From IMG/VR virus record IMGVR_UViG_3300021166_000096, positions 218-64,217 of that record: DNA of 64,000 bases; one strand, 5' to 3'. The stretch's first letter is position 1, and every line of letters begins with the position of its first letter. Below, in pieces: positions 14,973-19,716 of this stretch. Made by a program: the position numbers and the translations under genes. Origin of the DNA: a virus. Lineage: Duplodnaviria; Caudoviricetes. Under the pieces are notes generated by a model, which ran no database searches, had not been told where the DNA came from, and saw nothing but the letters and a program-made list of their open reading frames with translations.

Positions 14973-15386
14973 TTAGCGTTTTATTAGTTTTATCCTCGTT
15001 TTTGCGTCACCGACGCGCCATTTCTCTGACATTTCAAGAACAACTAATTTCTCGCCAGGAGTGAAGGCCTTAACTAATTCCAGAAGATCTCGCTGAAGAT
15101 GCCACTTTTTTGCGAGGTCATCGATGTCAAGAGAGTCCTCGACAGCATATTCGATGCCCTGAATTAGTTTATCAATGACTAAATTCTTAGGCGGCTCGTT
15201 GAGCATCGCCTCCATAAGTGCGGCCCACTCGTTTTCCAGAAGCTCGGGCCGACTCTTTTCGAGTACCCAATCGAGCCGATCCGCCGTCAGGTTGATAGTC
15301 GAACTGATCGACGAATCGATTTTCATCCGATCAGCGATCCGAGTTTGCAATTGGCCAGAGATGTAAATGGAAGTTCGTTTACTCAT
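14973..15386 (-). CDS. Probable ribbon-helix-helix-type regulator
   Basis: N-terminal MSKRTSIYISGQLQTRI strand-helix pattern. Confidence 0.55.
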   Translation of the reverse strand: MSKRTSIYISGQLQTRIADRMKIDSSISSTINLTADRLDWVLEKSRPELLENEWAALMEAMLNEPPKNLVIDKLIQGIEYAVEDSLDIDDLAKKWHLQRDLLELVKAFTPGEKLVVLEMSEKWRVGDAKTRIKLIKR

Positions 15387-16029
15387 GAATTTTCACCCTC
15401 GTAAGGACTGTTGATTTTTCCCCTTGGTACTCGTCCAAGGATTTGACTTTGCCAGTCAGATTTACGTCACAACCAAGAAGCTCGGCCAGGAGGTGTCCAG
15501 CCTTCCCACTCGAAAAACCCTTGACTTTATTACCACCAGGATCGACACCGATCCACAACAGAGAAGATCCGAACTCGGTGGCACACCATTTGAGGTAAGT
15601 GACCTTGATCCGGCAGGTGATGGTATGTCCGACTTCGCCGATCCACTGCGATACCCGGCGGGCCTGATCCTTGTGCCAGCGGATCGAGAACTCGATCATC
15701 TCGCGGACCTCTTGATCAGTCAGCCCACCATTGAGGTTGCGCTGTGCTTCGAGCTTGGTCTCATACAAGGTTTTCTTGACCATCTCACTATTGGTCAGGC
15801 CACCATTGCGCAGGCGCTGCCGGATGATCGCTGCGTCACGCTTCAGGCGATTCTGCAGAGTTGAGACTTTCACCCGCACTCGACCAGTACCGCCACATTG
15901 GAAGCAGGTCGTGCCGTGCATCTGGCAATAAGAAAAGTGTCCGCTACCACCACAACGGTGACAGGATTCGGTTGTCATTGCTTCGGATTTTTTAGGTTCT
16001 ACCATGTTGATGGTCTGTGCAGTTTTCAT
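15379..16029 (-). CDS. Zn-finger plus OB-fold-like protein
   Basis: CHRCGGSG and CFQCGGTG; C-terminal LTGKVKSLDEYQGEKSTVLTRVK. Confidence 0.65.
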   Translation of the reverse strand: MKTAQTINMVEPKKSEAMTTESCHRCGGSGHFSYCQMHGTTCFQCGGTGRVRVKVSTLQNRLKRDAAIIRQRLRNGGLTNSEMVKKTLYETKLEAQRNLNGGLTDQEVREMIEFSIRWHKDQARRVSQWIGEVGHTITCRIKVTYLKWCATEFGSSLLWIGVDPGGNKVKGFSSGKAGHLLAELLGCDVNLTGKVKSLDEYQGEKSTVLTRVKIHE

Positions 16030-16070
16030 AATTCCTCTCCGTTGATGGTTGATGTGATTGTCTAAAGCGC

Positions 16071-16086
16071 GAGGCCCGTAGGCCTC
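16071..16086 (-). other. C(UACG)G hairpin between genes (attenuator or processing element)
   Basis: GAGGCC-UACG-GGCCUC; same stem as the 1705-1737 terminator but followed only by GCGCUUU. Confidence 0.5.
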
Positions 16087-16091
16087 ATGAT

Positions 16092-16379
16092 TTAACCAAT
16101 CTCGATGATCTTGAGGATTTTGTCATCACCGTAGCTTGACGGCTTGCAGAGATCCCGCCGACTGTGGAAGCTCATGTACCCCTGCGGGCCACCCACCGAG
16201 CAGACCTTGCGGCTATGGATAGCGATGAAGCGTTGGTCGATTCGTTTACTCTTGCGAAGGACCAAGTACCCGGCGGTGATGAGCCTGCAGCCGGTTACCT
16301 GCGCCCGATTGTGTCGAGCATAGGTTTTTTCCATCATCACTTTCTCGATTGCCAATGCTTTTTCCAAATCGAAGTTCAT
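16092..16379 (-). CDS. Hypothetical early protein
   Basis: 95-aa ORF with GAGG RBS. Confidence 0.6.
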   Translation of the reverse strand: MNFDLEKALAIEKVMMEKTYARHNRAQVTGCRLITAGYLVLRKSKRIDQRFIAIHSRKVCSVGGPQGYMSFHSRRDLCKPSSYGDDKILKIIEIG

Positions 16380-16567
16380 GCGATCACCACCTCGGCATTA
16401 ATGCCGGTACCAGTAAGGATTGAAACGTGCAGGTCGTAGGCTAGTTGGATGGCCTCGCGATCACCAAGGCAGGGGATGCTTACTGGCTCACCGAAGCCGG
16501 TCAGTACCACATTGTATACCTTGCTTCCATCAGTCAGGGTCTCGGTTTCCAGGATTAGTTTGCTCAT
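16376..16567 (-). CDS. Hypothetical early protein
   Basis: 63-aa ORF; TGATG overlap. Confidence 0.6.
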   Translation of the reverse strand: MSKLILETETLTDGSKVYNVVLTGFGEPVSIPCLGDREAIQLAYDLHVSILTGTGINAEVVIA

Positions 16568-16830
16568 CAGACCACCTCACAGTTGGCTACCAGGATTCCC
16601 CAGGCGCAGGCCTTGTCATCATATCGCTCGTACTCAATCTCATCGACCTCGCCCTTCGGGCAGCGGCATTCCGACATACCACAGAAATGGTTTGCGATCT
16701 TTCGGGCCTGACCCTTGCTGATGGTGAAGACCTCCTCATCCTGGAAATTCTCAGCCTTTTTACCAGTGATGACCAAGTCGATTGCCGGAGATTGGTGGAA
16801 ATTGAATTTAGGCTCATATTTGATTTTCAT
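16567..16830 (-). CDS. Hypothetical early protein
   Basis: 87-aa ORF with AAAGGA RBS. Confidence 0.6.
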   Translation of the reverse strand: MKIKYEPKFNFHQSPAIDLVITGKKAENFQDEEVFTISKGQARKIANHFCGMSECRCPKGEVDEIEYERYDDKACAWGILVANCEVV

Positions 16831-16887
16831 AGCACTTTCCTTTAGGTAGAGCTTTTGAAGGGGAGCCGAGATGGCTTCCCAGAATGA

Positions 16888-17088
16888 TCATGCGTTGTCT
16901 CTCAGCCACCGCTGCATTACCAGGATGGCTGCTTCAACTTGTCGAGGGGAGAGAATAATCGAGTTAGGATCATGCTCCCCTTTGTCGAGGACCAACTGTG
17001 GTCGGCCCTCAAAGTCCATTTCTTGGACGTAAACTATTCCCTGCGATCCATCGTGGTGGGTTTCAACAAGCATTGCGATTTGTTCCAT
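16888..17088 (-). CDS. First early gene, hypothetical (MEQIAMLVE...)
   Basis: AAGGAG RBS before ATG 17088; the longer ORF-track start overlaps the ribozyme. Confidence 0.65.
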   Translation of the reverse strand: MEQIAMLVETHHDGSQGIVYVQEMDFEGRPQLVLDKGEHDPNSIILSPRQVEAAILVMQRWLRDNA

Positions 17089-17117
17089 GATTGCTTTCTC
17101 CTTGAGTAGCTCTTTTG

Positions 17118-17170
17118 GATGTTTCGGCCTGATGGCCATCTTCAGTACCGGTGAAGAACCGGTAGACATC
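17118..17170 (-). ncRNA. Type III hammerhead ribozyme
   Basis: GAUGU-C^-UACCGGU-UCUUC-ACCGGUA-CUGAAGA-U-GGCC-AUCA-GGCC-GAA-ACAUC: GUC cleavage triplet, 5-bp stem III, 7-bp stem I, 4-bp stem II, complete CUGANGA and GAAA core. Confidence 0.85.
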
Positions 17171-17328
17171 TCAGGGACTCGCGGCTGTTAAGCAGGCGGC
17201 CCTGGTCGTATCTGGGACGGTACTAAAACCGGTTGCCTCTGCGATGCTCTCTCCCAGCTACGACATCGCTGGGGAGGTTGGGGAGACCCGACTTCGCTCC
17301 TCCTGTCTGACAGCCGAACCGCACCGTC
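17171..17328 (-). ncRNA. Structured 5-prime leader upstream of the hammerhead
   Basis: 12/13-bp inverted repeat 17205-17217 / 17252-17264 plus competing stems; non-coding. Confidence 0.5.
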
Positions 17329-17334
17329 AAGGAC

Positions 17335-17363
17335 AGATTACTCAAATATGATTAATAGTGCAA
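17335..17363 (-). promoter_or_regulatory. Sigma70-like early promoter
   Basis: TTGCAC-N17-TAATCT on the minus strand at the divergence point of the two arms. Confidence 0.65.
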
Positions 17364-17454
17364 TAGGAAAAAGCATGTTCGATTCATAAAAATGCATTTT
17401 TCTGTAGACGGGAGAATTCTATCGAGTTATCAGCATCTTACCGGGAGGTATTTT

Positions 17455-18075
17455 ATGGAGAAAATAATCGCATGGGAAAAATTGAGACCGATTTACGAGA
17501 CAGGACGAATCTCTGTCCGTGAAATTGCTCGACAATTTGACTGCGCAGAATCAGCAATAAGAAAAAAAGCAAAGGCTGAAAATTGGGCCAGGGATTTATC
17601 GTGGCGCGTCCAGGAACAGGTGCGCACCGATTTAGTGCGCTCTACGGTGCGCATTTCCAACGCAACTGAGCGAGAATGCATAGAAAGTGCCGCCGCTGAG
17701 ATAGTTCAGATCTCTCATCGTAACCGAGAATTAATCGAGCGACTTGAGAGCATCCTGCGCGGCTTGCTTGAGGAACTGCAGTACATCCCTACAGAGGAAG
17801 CCGCGTACGAGCGCCTAATCGAAATCGAAGCGCCCCACAGTCCAGCAGATGTCATCAAGGAGATGCGCCGGATGACGCTACCGCTCGAAAAGCGTACAGC
17901 CCTGGTAAAAACAATGTCCGAAGTCGCCGAGCGCCTGATCAAGCTCTACCGCTTGTGCTACGGCATGGACGCACAGCCCGCGGAGACGCCAGGCAATATC
18001 CTGTCCGATGTGTTGTCGGTGATCGCTGGTCGCGGCACCGTCCGCTGCCTACCTGGGAGCATCGACGCGCTGTGA
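17455..18075 (+). CDS. terS: Terminase small subunit
   Basis: IAWEKLRPIYETGRISVREIARQFDCAESAIRKKAKAENWARD HTH; directly upstream of TerL; GGAGG RBS. Confidence 0.75.
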   Translation: MEKIIAWEKLRPIYETGRISVREIARQFDCAESAIRKKAKAENWARDLSWRVQEQVRTDLVRSTVRISNATERECIESAAAEIVQISHRNRELIERLESILRGLLEELQYIPTEEAAYERLIEIEAPHSPADVIKEMRRMTLPLEKRTALVKTMSEVAERLIKLYRLCYGMDAQPAETPGNILSDVLSVIAGRGTVRCLPGSIDAL

Positions 18076-18150
18076 TTAGACCTTTGAGAGCAGATCGCCT
18101 GTGTCAATGGCCAGGTCCATTTCAACGGATCAATGCAGGAAGGGATAAAA

Positions 18151-19716
18151 ATGATCACAACTGAACAGATGCAGCGCGAATTGCTTGTTCACTTGGGCGA
18201 TCGCGAATGGCGGATGGACAACCTCTACCAGATCGAGGACAAGATGGGCAACGTTGTGCCCTTCGTCCGTAACGATTCGCAGCGAGAATTCTGGCATCAT
18301 ATGTGGTGGCTCAACGTCATCCTAAAGGACAGGCAGCGAGGCTTCTCCACACTGATCGCGATCTTCATCCTGGACTCTTGTTTGTTCGCCCCGAACACGA
18401 CGGCAGGCATCATCGACATTACGCTGCCTGATGCCAAGAAGAAGCTGGGCAAGATCCTGTTCGCCTACGATCGCCTGCCGGAGAGCATCAAGGCAGAAGT
18501 CCCGACACTAACCAGGGCGAAGGAGTCGATCGAGTGGGTCAACGGCTCCCGGGTCGACGTGTCGACGAGCCATCGTGGCGGCACTTTGCAGATTCTGCAC
18601 ATCAGCGAGTATGGAAAGATCGCGGCCAGGAAGCCCGACGTGGCCAAGGAAATCAAGACTGGCGCGATGAACACGGTTGCGGCGGGTAATTTTATGATCG
18701 TTGAATCGACCGCTGAAGGGCAGGAAGGTGAGTTCTTCGAGATTTGCCAGGAAAGCCAGCGCCAGGCTGCAGCCAAGTCAATCCTGACGCCGCTTGATTT
18801 CAAGTTCCACTTTTTTGGTTGGTGGATGGGCCACGAGAATGAGCTGGAAGAAGGCACGGTCGCGATCACCGACGAAGTCCACGCCTACTGTAACAAGATC
18901 GAAGCCGAACTGGGCATCACCATTAACAATAGGAAGCGGGGCTGGTATCAGAAGAAGCAGAAGCAGCAGGGCGATGACATGATGACGCGGGAGTTCCCGT
19001 CGACTCCGAAGGAGGCCTTCGCGGCCAGCATCGACGGCAGCTACTACGCCAAGGCCATGCTCAAAGCCCGTCAGGAAGGTAGGATCTGCCACGTCCCATA
19101 CGACGAGGGCTTCCCGGTGGAGGTTTTCTGGGATCTCGGGATGGACGACAGCATGAGCCTATGGTTCCGCCAGCGGATCGGTGGCTCCAATCGGCTGATC
19201 GATTATTATGAGGCCAGCGGTGAAGGCCTGGCGCACTATGCCAAGATCCTGAATGAGAGAGGTTACCTCTACGGCAAGCACTACATGCCGCATGACGCCA
19301 GCGTTCGTGAGCTTGGGACTGGTATCAAAAGAAGTGAGAAAGCGGAAGAGCTGGGCATCAAACCTGTTGTCACGGTGGTGCGACCTCGAGACACGGAAGC
19401 GGTGTTGGATGGAATTGAGGCAGTACGGACATTCCTATCTACCTGTTGGATCGACGAACGAAAATGCGCAGCGGGAATAAAATGCGTGGACAACTATCGA
19501 AAAGAGTGGGATGAGAGATTAGCATCCTTCCGTCGTGGTCCGCTTCATAACTGGGCGTCACATGGGGCAGATAGCCTGCGGACAGGTGCGGTAGCACTCA
19601 AAGGGGAGACAGCGTTGATGCCAACTGCGGAGCAAAAGAAATCGTGGCGTGATCGACTGAGCGGTGGTGGCAGCATTAATGGTGGCCTGCGTCCACGCGG
19701 AGCGAACGTCGCATGA
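18151..19716 (+). CDS. terL: Terminase large subunit
   Basis: ILKDRQRGFST (Walker A variant), LHISEYG (Walker B), IVESTAEG, VFWDLGMDD nuclease, WASHGADSLR. Confidence 0.95.
   Translation: MITTEQMQRELLVHLGDREWRMDNLYQIEDKMGNVVPFVRNDSQREFWHHMWWLNVILKDRQRGFSTLIAIFILDSCLFAPNTTAGIIDITLPDAKKKLGKILFAYDRLPESIKAEVPTLTRAKESIEWVNGSRVDVSTSHRGGTLQILHISEYGKIAARKPDVAKEIKTGAMNTVAAGNFMIVESTAEGQEGEFFEICQESQRQAAAKSILTPLDFKFHFFGWWMGHENELEEGTVAITDEVHAYCNKIEAELGITINNRKRGWYQKKQKQQGDDMMTREFPSTPKEAFAASIDGSYYAKAMLKARQEGRICHVPYDEGFPVEVFWDLGMDDSMSLWFRQRIGGSNRLIDYYEASGEGLAHYAKILNERGYLYGKHYMPHDASVRELGTGIKRSEKAEELGIKPVVTVVRPRDTEAVLDGIEAVRTFLSTCWIDERKCAAGIKCVDNYRKEWDERLASFRRGPLHNWASHGADSLRTGAVALKGETALMPTAEQKKSWRDRLSGGGSINGGLRPRGANVA

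Follow-up and report, generated by a model that had tools for sequence, protein, structure and literature searches.

Positions 17118 to 17170 of a tailed phage genome carry, on the minus strand, what is probably a genuine and active self-cleaving ribozyme, a type III hammerhead located in the 5′ leader ahead of the leftward arm's first gene, as judged from its sequence. The motif is complete and improbable by chance, and it belongs to a covarying family of phage hammerheads that are placed before genes. The window (the whole 64,000-nt stretch of DNA that was analyzed) spans nearly all of a 64,217-bp IMG/VR virus record, which has direct terminal repeats. A 2011 study described hundreds of hammerheads in bacteria, including many from prophages, and assayed some intergenic phage copies (PMC3088659). 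The biological role of this class of phage hammerheads is still unproven, and the present motif adds one more example.

Sequence and Predicted Fold of the Hammerhead

Read from 17170 to 17118, the minus strand is GAUGU-C-UACCGGU-UCUUC-ACCGGUA-CUGAAGA-U-GGCC-AUCA-GGCC-GAA-ACAUC, which contains the following elements.

17118 to 17170, minus strand: complete type III hammerhead ribozyme motif, 53 nt (sequence reading, RF00008 alignment, minimum free energy [MFE] fold and model R1)
17166 to 17170, minus strand: 5′ strand of stem III, GAUGU (U16.1 is 17166), which pairs with 17118-17122
17165, minus strand: C17, with the predicted scissile bond between 17165 and 17164 (position set by the hammerhead consensus)
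17146 to 17164, minus strand: stem I hairpin of 7 bp, UACCGGU/ACCGGUA (17164-17158/17152-17146), with loop 1 UCUUC at 17157-17153 (reading and fold)
17139 to 17145, minus strand: core C3 to A9, CUGAAGA (reading and RF00008 alignment)
17138, minus strand: extra U between A9 and G10.1 (insert in the RF00008 alignment)
17126 to 17137, minus strand: stem II hairpin, GGCC (17137-17134)/GGCC (17129-17126), with loop 2 AUCA at 17133-17130 (sequence reading)
17118 to 17125, minus strand: G12, A13 and A14 (17125-17123) and the 3′ strand of stem III, ACAUC (17122-17118; A15.1 is 17122) (reading, RF00008 and fold)

All elements listed in a preliminary description of this DNA (the stems, GUC triplet, loops, core, extra U and GAAA) were found on the minus strand by direct reading. 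The required core C3 U4 G5 A6 N7 G8 A9 is present as CUGAAGA at 17145-17139. G12, A13 and A14 are intact, and A15.1 (17122) pairs with U16.1 (17166) to close stem III. Nucleotide 17 is C (an H, not a G), giving a GUC cleavage triplet. The helices have 7, 4 and 5 bp, all Watson-Crick and including G10.1-C11.1 and U1.1-A2.1, with no mispair beside the core. Stem III is the open helix and the other two end in loops, a topology that the MFE fold reproduces. The type III consensus has no insertion in the core, and here the motif departs from it by one U (17138) between A9 and G10.1. The earlier reading of the site as a type III hammerhead with one extra base at this point is supported throughout at the sequence level and by a family of phage hammerheads with the same insertion.

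The 66-nt segment 17175-17110 is predicted to form the three-way junction both as the MFE and as the centroid structure (−20.2 kcal/mol, z −2.57). When different 5′ and 3′ ends of the leader were combined, the hammerhead was the MFE structure or within 2.4 kcal/mol of it in 18 of 18 contexts. In the contexts tested, stem I has a pair probability of 0.58 to 0.96 and stem II of at least 0.97. The 5-bp stem III is outcompeted by other pairings in some predicted leader folds, where its pair probability drops to as little as 0.01. The hexamer GAUGUC (the 5′ strand of stem III plus C17) occurs a second time on the minus strand at 17267-17262, roughly 100 nt upstream, as part of a hairpin loop closed by CCCAGC/GCUGGG; this copy could compete for the 3′ strand of stem III, or it could be a coincidence.

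A conditional switch, in which the short stem III strands pair instead with parts of the leader or of the downstream mRNA and so gate cleavage and tune the early arm, is quite unlikely. For some 5′ ends stem III has a pair probability of 0.01 to 0.10 with stems I and II still formed, alternative folds lie 0.7 to 2.4 kcal/mol from the hammerhead fold, GAUGUC recurs upstream, and regulated cleavage was proposed for some phage hammerheads by Perreault et al. (PMC3088659). However, a weak stem III is common among ordinary hammerheads (PMC3088659), fold predictions are unreliable for RNAs longer than 200 nt, and cleavage is likely to be co-transcriptional.

Loop 1 (UCUUC) and loop 2 (AUCA) fit the published motifs UNmYN and RNnA, respectively, a match at the motif level only (PMC2632901). 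The 5′ U of UNmYN and the 3′ A of RNnA make the tertiary contact of classical hammerheads (PMC2632901), and the loop sequences agree with the earlier remark that loop 1 begins with U and loop 2 ends with A. The two loops are unable to form a loop-loop pseudoknot, unlike those of most members of the U-insert family, so activity at physiological Mg2+ would rest on the classical contact. Cleavage in trans at other sites was considered and rejected on reasoning, as stems I and II each form a closed hairpin and leave no strand for a substrate to supply.

Position in the Phage Genome

The ribozyme lies in a 303-nt divergent gap between the plus-strand genes terS, terL and portal and a leftward arm on the minus strand. 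The plus-strand genes extend from 17392 to about 57.7 kb and begin with the small terminase, large terminase and portal genes, and the plus-strand neighbor of the gap is terS, not a repressor. The leftward arm, which starts at ATG 17088 (minus strand), contains small ORFs, a gene for a 966-aa P-loop protein, an exonuclease gene (phrog_69) and others; these are genes of the replication and nucleotide-metabolism type. The features around the ribozyme are given below.

17392 to 18075, plus strand: terS, small terminase subunit, first gene of the rightward (late) arm (phrog_1206, E 2.2e-33)
17171 to 17391, minus strand: upstream divergent intergenic part, presumed to hold the promoter and a leader detachable by cleavage
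17098 to 17103, minus strand: Shine-Dalgarno (SD) sequence AAGGAG of the first leftward gene, ending 9 nt before ATG 17088
16888 to 17088, minus strand: first ORF of the leftward arm, 66 aa, an ORFan, starting 29 nt past the ribozyme 3′ end

The divergent gap separates the late arm from the replication-type arm, and therefore the ribozyme is at the head of the leftward arm. The gene map, with the gap next to terS, fits the earlier placement of the motif at the head of the early transcript, and ATG 17088 follows the cut by 76 nt, in agreement with the preliminary description. The SD sequence and the AUG are 15 nt and 29 nt, respectively, beyond the 3′ end of the ribozyme. The leftward arm would be transcribed early, presumably from a promoter in the gap. 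The preliminary description had placed a sigma70-like promoter about 160 nt upstream, but this element (TTGCAC-17-TAATCT) is absent from the sites that a consensus scan returned there and matches 6 of 12 consensus positions by hand count. The consensus scan found no promoter in the divergent gap; the lone minus-strand match (17478-17450) falls within terS, and a single match does not exceed the chance expectation.

The motif overlaps an upstream extension of the first ORF, and the sequence could in principle be protein coding, a 93-aa ORF from ATG 17169 with an incidental likeness to a hammerhead. That ATG (17169-17167, minus strand), inside stem III, shares its frame with ATG 17088, and no stop lies between them. 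Such a reading is extremely unlikely, as ATG 17169 has no SD sequence before it while ATG 17088 has AAGGAG, the gene call in the protein database is the 66-aa form, and 27 stop-free codons are unremarkable and leave the full core and three perfect helices unexplained.

About 1 kb downstream in the same arm, 15379-16029 (minus strand) encodes a 216-aa protein that has CxxC pairs and a match to phrog_4046 (E 1.1e-09). In other phages, two ORFs located immediately after family hammerheads also match this PHROG. There is a weak hint of a host in the Pseudomonadota.

Chance Expectation, Rfam Scores and Related Phages

A descriptor scan of both strands of the 64-kb window found the site at 17118-17170 and no other type III site. 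Of 300 shuffles of the whole window with dinucleotides preserved, none contained a site whose stems reached 7, 4 and 5 bp, and a far more permissive descriptor (minimum stems of 4, 3 and 3 bp) averaged 0.06 sites per 64 kb of shuffled sequence.

Rfam searches of the whole window returned nothing at the gathering thresholds or at E ≤ 1, and the hammerhead surfaced only when the local 601 nt (16900-17500) were searched alone. Hammerhead covariance models had been suggested as a check on the motif, and there RF00008 (Hammerhead_3) aligned at full length (model positions 1-54) with the extra U shown as an insert, but its score of 26.4 bits is below the gathering score of 48.5. No second ribozyme of any Rfam class was found in 16900-17500. 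On 16 loci with verified members of the family described below, RF00008 gave no hit at the gathering score and a best score of 32 bits; a single verified site among these loci, in L165, was matched at E < 0.01 (31 bits). Since these verified members also fall below it, the gathering threshold is uninformative for the U-insert subgroup, and the low RF00008 score is no evidence against a hammerhead. The blindness of RF00008 to this phage subgroup means that annotation pipelines will overlook its members.

No orthologous copy of the ribozyme was found in any collection searched, in answer to the earlier suggestion that related phages be surveyed for one at the same position. No similar phage DNA was detected by blastn of 16000-18500 against phage records, and no exact 25-mer copy of the ribozyme was present in the viral contigs or the metagenome contigs. 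The TerS protein has only two matches in viral contigs, both 30% identical, and none in metagenomes, and the first ORF has no homologues in the protein database beyond the phage's own 66-aa call. At 80 viral loci with TerL relatives (up to 69% identical) no hammerhead was found by descriptor, nor was one found by model R1 on the TerL-relative loci; the best RF00008 score over 50 whole records of TerL relatives was 16.9 bits. In L004, the closest TerL relative, the genes that precede terS run in the same direction as it does, and thus the terS junction is not conserved there. Patchy occurrence is what is usually reported for phage hammerheads.

The score under the Rfam gathering threshold, the inserted base next to the core and the lack of a conserved orthologue are features that a functionless sequence, either an inactive relic or a look-alike that arose by chance, would share, and some hammerhead-like sequences are inactive according to Perreault et al. 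(PMC3088659). This explanation is nevertheless very unlikely. The core bases are all intact, the stems (7, 4 and 5 bp) are perfect Watson-Crick helices, the site was equaled in none of the 300 shuffles, the same insertion recurs in a covarying family, the distance to the ORF start is typical of that family, and the published descriptors permit a base after the core.

A Phage Family with the Same Inserted U

Viral contigs were searched with a family pattern consisting of CTGANGATGGCC, a gap of 3-7 nt and GGCCGAAAC, which fixes the core, the inserted U, stem II and GAAAC. The pattern matched 87 sites in 81 viral stretches, compared with about 1 match expected by chance for 20 fixed bases under an assumed collection size. 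Type III flanks are present at 60 of the 87 sites and at least 13 are type I permutations; by eye, most of the remaining sites are type I permutations as well. A pattern without the inserted U matched at least 120 stretches in viral contigs. The U-insert form is thus a common minority of the phage hammerheads that have this stem II.

Fifty non-redundant type III members (the window was excluded, and at least 3 bp in each stem were required at selection) were aligned. Stems I and III covary across these members, with 221 double-sided changes against 79 in shuffles, and 0 of 500 shuffles reached as high a count. The covariation score is 0.545 compared with 0.121 in shuffles, and it collapses in slid controls. 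This covariation comes from other phages and applies at the level of the family. Stem I is 98% paired in the 50 members, part of the pairing being imposed by the selection. The length of stem I (6 bp), C at position 17 and a fixed spacing are uniform without having been selected for. Most family members have a pseudoknot between loop 1 and loop 2 that partly covaries.

Position 17 is C in 50 of 50 members although A, C or U was permitted. Among siblings that have the same stem II and no insertion (L168-L286), position 17 is A in 15, C in 29 and U in 4. There may be a link between the U insertion and the cleavage triplet, which has C in 50 of 50 members with the U (L087-L167) and A, C or U without it.

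Under model R1, a covariance model built from the 50 members with the window left out, the site reaches 52.9 bits (E about 5e-14); the next hit in the window has 10.5 bits. There is some circularity in this score: the pattern that retrieved the family was taken from the core and stem II of the window itself, and about 25 of the 57 model positions match the window by construction. The independent parts of the score are the GUC triplet, the stem I hairpin, stem III and the spacing.

Placement of the Family before Genes

The family hammerheads lie just upstream of genes. In 42 of 53 (79%) non-redundant type III members, the ribozyme 3′ end is followed within 40 nt by the start of an SD-led ORF of 50 codons or more, compared with 8% for random same-strand positions in the same loci. 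The gap of 29 nt in the window is inside the main cluster of the family (8-29 nt). An ORF start is placed alike in 32 of 43 siblings without the U insertion, and type I members are often 20-33 nt before an ORF. The 43 ORFs that follow family ribozymes have no PHROG family in common, and Perreault et al. likewise observed that downstream genes share no family (PMC3088659). Thus, the constant feature of the family is a predicted cut just 5′ of the ribosome-binding site of a gene. The tightly constrained distance to start codons points to a role in gene expression and not in replication or mobility.

The upstream side is less regular. By a crude classing, a co-directional ORF ends within 60 nt upstream in about one-third of the members, and others have a divergent neighbor, as in the window. 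Greedy gene calling is too noisy to orient the upstream neighbor at single sites, with 23 of 50 sites in likely shadow ORFs. In the window, the leader 17171-17391 is unusually long (221 nt) and partly G+C-rich, its predicted fold is not significantly more stable than those of shuffles (z −1.61), and it has no Rfam match.

The long and partly G+C-rich stretch between terS and the ribozyme is compatible with an active ribozyme that serves chiefly to free the leader (about 160 nt or longer) as a separate small RNA whose precise 3′ end bears a 2′,3′-cyclic phosphate, with any effect on the mRNA being secondary. The type III topology would leave almost no ribozyme on that upstream product. The release of a small RNA as the main function is unlikely, however, given that the leader fold is no more stable than expected from shuffles, that the leader has neither an Rfam match nor a homologue in the collections searched, and that the constant feature of the family is the start of a downstream ORF while about one-third of the members have a co-directional ORF, not a non-coding RNA, closely upstream.

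Proposed Mechanism

As a self-cleaving element in the 5′ leader of the first leftward gene, the hammerhead would act on the mRNA of the arm, provided that the minus strand is transcribed through it. As the leader is transcribed, stems I and II would fold, and stem III would close once ACAUC emerges. The RNA would then cut itself between C17165 and U17164, and the upstream leader would depart bearing a 2′,3′-cyclic phosphate; dissociation is expected since the leader is held by only the 5 bp of stem III. The mRNA would be left with a 5′-OH end followed by both ribozyme hairpins. The steps from folding to cleavage, through the 5′-OH end, are established hammerhead chemistry applied to this sequence.

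The likely benefit lies in the 5′ end of the mRNA, to which cleavage would give a defined form that is independent of the promoter and poorly recognized by 5′-end-dependent decay. A 5′-OH end is a poor entry point for RNase E, which is stimulated by a 5′ monophosphate, and it is no substrate for RppH. The effect on RNase E- and RppH-dependent decay put forward in the preliminary description is a reasonable expectation. Unmasking of the ribosome-binding site by cleavage was considered and rejected, as the predicted unpaired probability of the SD sequence is 0.54 with the leader and 0.54 after cleavage. A translational benefit is therefore not evident, since predicted SD accessibility is unchanged. 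The motif would be a natural counterpart of engineered ribozyme insulators. Because it is a single compact ribozyme at an operon head, 29 nt before an SD-led gene, leaders with an active and a cleavage-dead ribozyme can be compared directly for mRNA half-life and protein.

Comparison with Known Hammerheads

The site resembles the type III hammerheads of bacteria, prophages and phages (RF00008; PMC3088659) in its core, its three-helix topology, its GUC triplet and its intergenic position beside phage genes. It differs from them in that it is below the RF00008 gathering score and is a single copy at an operon head and not part of a cluster that flanks a gene. Phage type III examples commonly use a loop-loop pseudoknot, whereas the site in the window has the short loops UCUUC and AUCA. 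Perreault et al. proposed in 2011 that such ribozymes process phage transcripts into gene-length mRNAs (PMC3088659), and their RNAMotif descriptors include "one base allowed after core" (PMC3088659).

A natural parallel for the inserted base is found in the viroid CChMVd, which the preliminary description had correctly named as a precedent. The (+) hammerhead of CChMVd is a natural, active type III ribozyme with an extra A10 between A9 and G10.1 (PMC1636495, citing De la Pena and Flores 2001), and it uses the classical contact between a loop 1 U and a loop 2 A, which the loops in the window match at the motif level (PMC2632901). The two differ in that the viroid RNA processes rolling-circle multimers and in that its extra base is an A while that of the window is a U. 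Judged from sequence descriptors, CChMVd A10 and the 87 viral sites, a base after A9 is accepted natural variation among hammerheads. De la Pena and Flores are said to have found in 2001 that a U at the extra position after A9 raises the rate.

The close precedent for a hammerhead at the head of an early transcript, by analogy, is HHphage of the haloviruses HF1 and HF2. In these viruses an early transcript has HHphage 13 nt ahead of its first ORF, and the mapped 5′ end of this transcript is at most 3 nt from the cut (PMC3088659). Both hammerheads lie shortly before a first ORF, that of an early polycistronic transcript for HHphage and that of a presumed early transcript for the motif in the window. 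HHphage is a structural variant of archaeal viruses that depends on high salt, whereas the hammerhead in the window has the standard compact fold.

Hammerheads also occupy 5′ untranslated regions (UTRs) in engineered circuits and in eukaryotic viruses. RiboJ-type hammerheads normalize the 5′ UTR in engineered circuits, and uncleaved mRNA has been modeled as decaying about 2 times faster (PMC7536230). As is proposed for the hammerhead in the window, RiboJ lies in the 5′ UTR between promoter and ribosome-binding site, where a variable leader is removed and a 5′-OH with hairpins is left; it is a synthetic part derived from a plant satellite RNA, and the parallel is one of mechanism, not ancestry. 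Self-cleavage of hammerheads in the 5′ UTR of fungal and plant RNA viruses enables translation initiation (PMC13725137). These are likewise viral 5′-UTR ribozymes that serve gene expression and not replication, a role that is proposed for the hammerhead in the window. They are from eukaryotic viruses, mostly of type I and associated with cap-independent translation, whereas the present motif is a type III hammerhead of a DNA phage with SD-led initiation.

Possible Ribosome-Binding Site Fusions and Hammerhead Arrays

In part of the family the ribozyme and the translation start appear to overlap. Ten of the 15 members in which loop 2 is (A)GGAGG have an ORF of at least 50 codons that starts 1-3 nt after GAAAC, compared with 3 of 40 other members with an ORF start that close. 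In this subset (L093, L099, L102, L106, L123, L127, L129 with two sites, L133 and L153) the AUG is in the 3′ strand of stem III, and GGAGG of loop 2, 9-11 nt upstream, is an apparent SD sequence. This suggests that ribozyme and ribosome-binding site (RBS) are fused in these members, where cleavage would release the start codon.

It is possible, and we propose it tentatively, that the hammerhead in the window belongs to a large subgroup of phage hammerheads (GUC, U after A9 and a GGCC stem II, with type III and type I forms) that RF00008 misses at the loci tested and that generate 5′ ends just before start codons. A subset of these would couple cleavage to translation initiation, with loop 2 as SD sequence and the AUG in stem III. 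Hammerheads would then serve phages as natural ribozyme-RBS modules with which expression is set gene by gene, here for the first gene of the early arm. The chief by-products of the analysis concern the family, namely the tight placement before start codons, the invisibility to RF00008 and the subset with an SD sequence in loop 2.

Hammerhead arrays with 2-5 copies per viral contig, spaced by a few hundred nucleotides, were observed (for example, L129:5323-5636 and L133:1078-1497). Three hammerhead sites about 360 nt apart are present in L113:9514-10257, and there are 5 sites in L202, 4 in L230 and 4 in L235. These arrays resemble the hammerhead clusters flanking single genes that were reported by Perreault et al. 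Hammerheads of other types also occur near U-insert type III copies. A type II hammerhead is located at L163:2384-2453 on the minus strand (RF02276, 50.6 bits, above the gathering score) and a type I hammerhead at L161:4585-4638 on the plus strand (29.5 bits). Near another U-insert copy, L125:2066-2111 (minus strand) is a second type III hammerhead that is cut off at the contig end.
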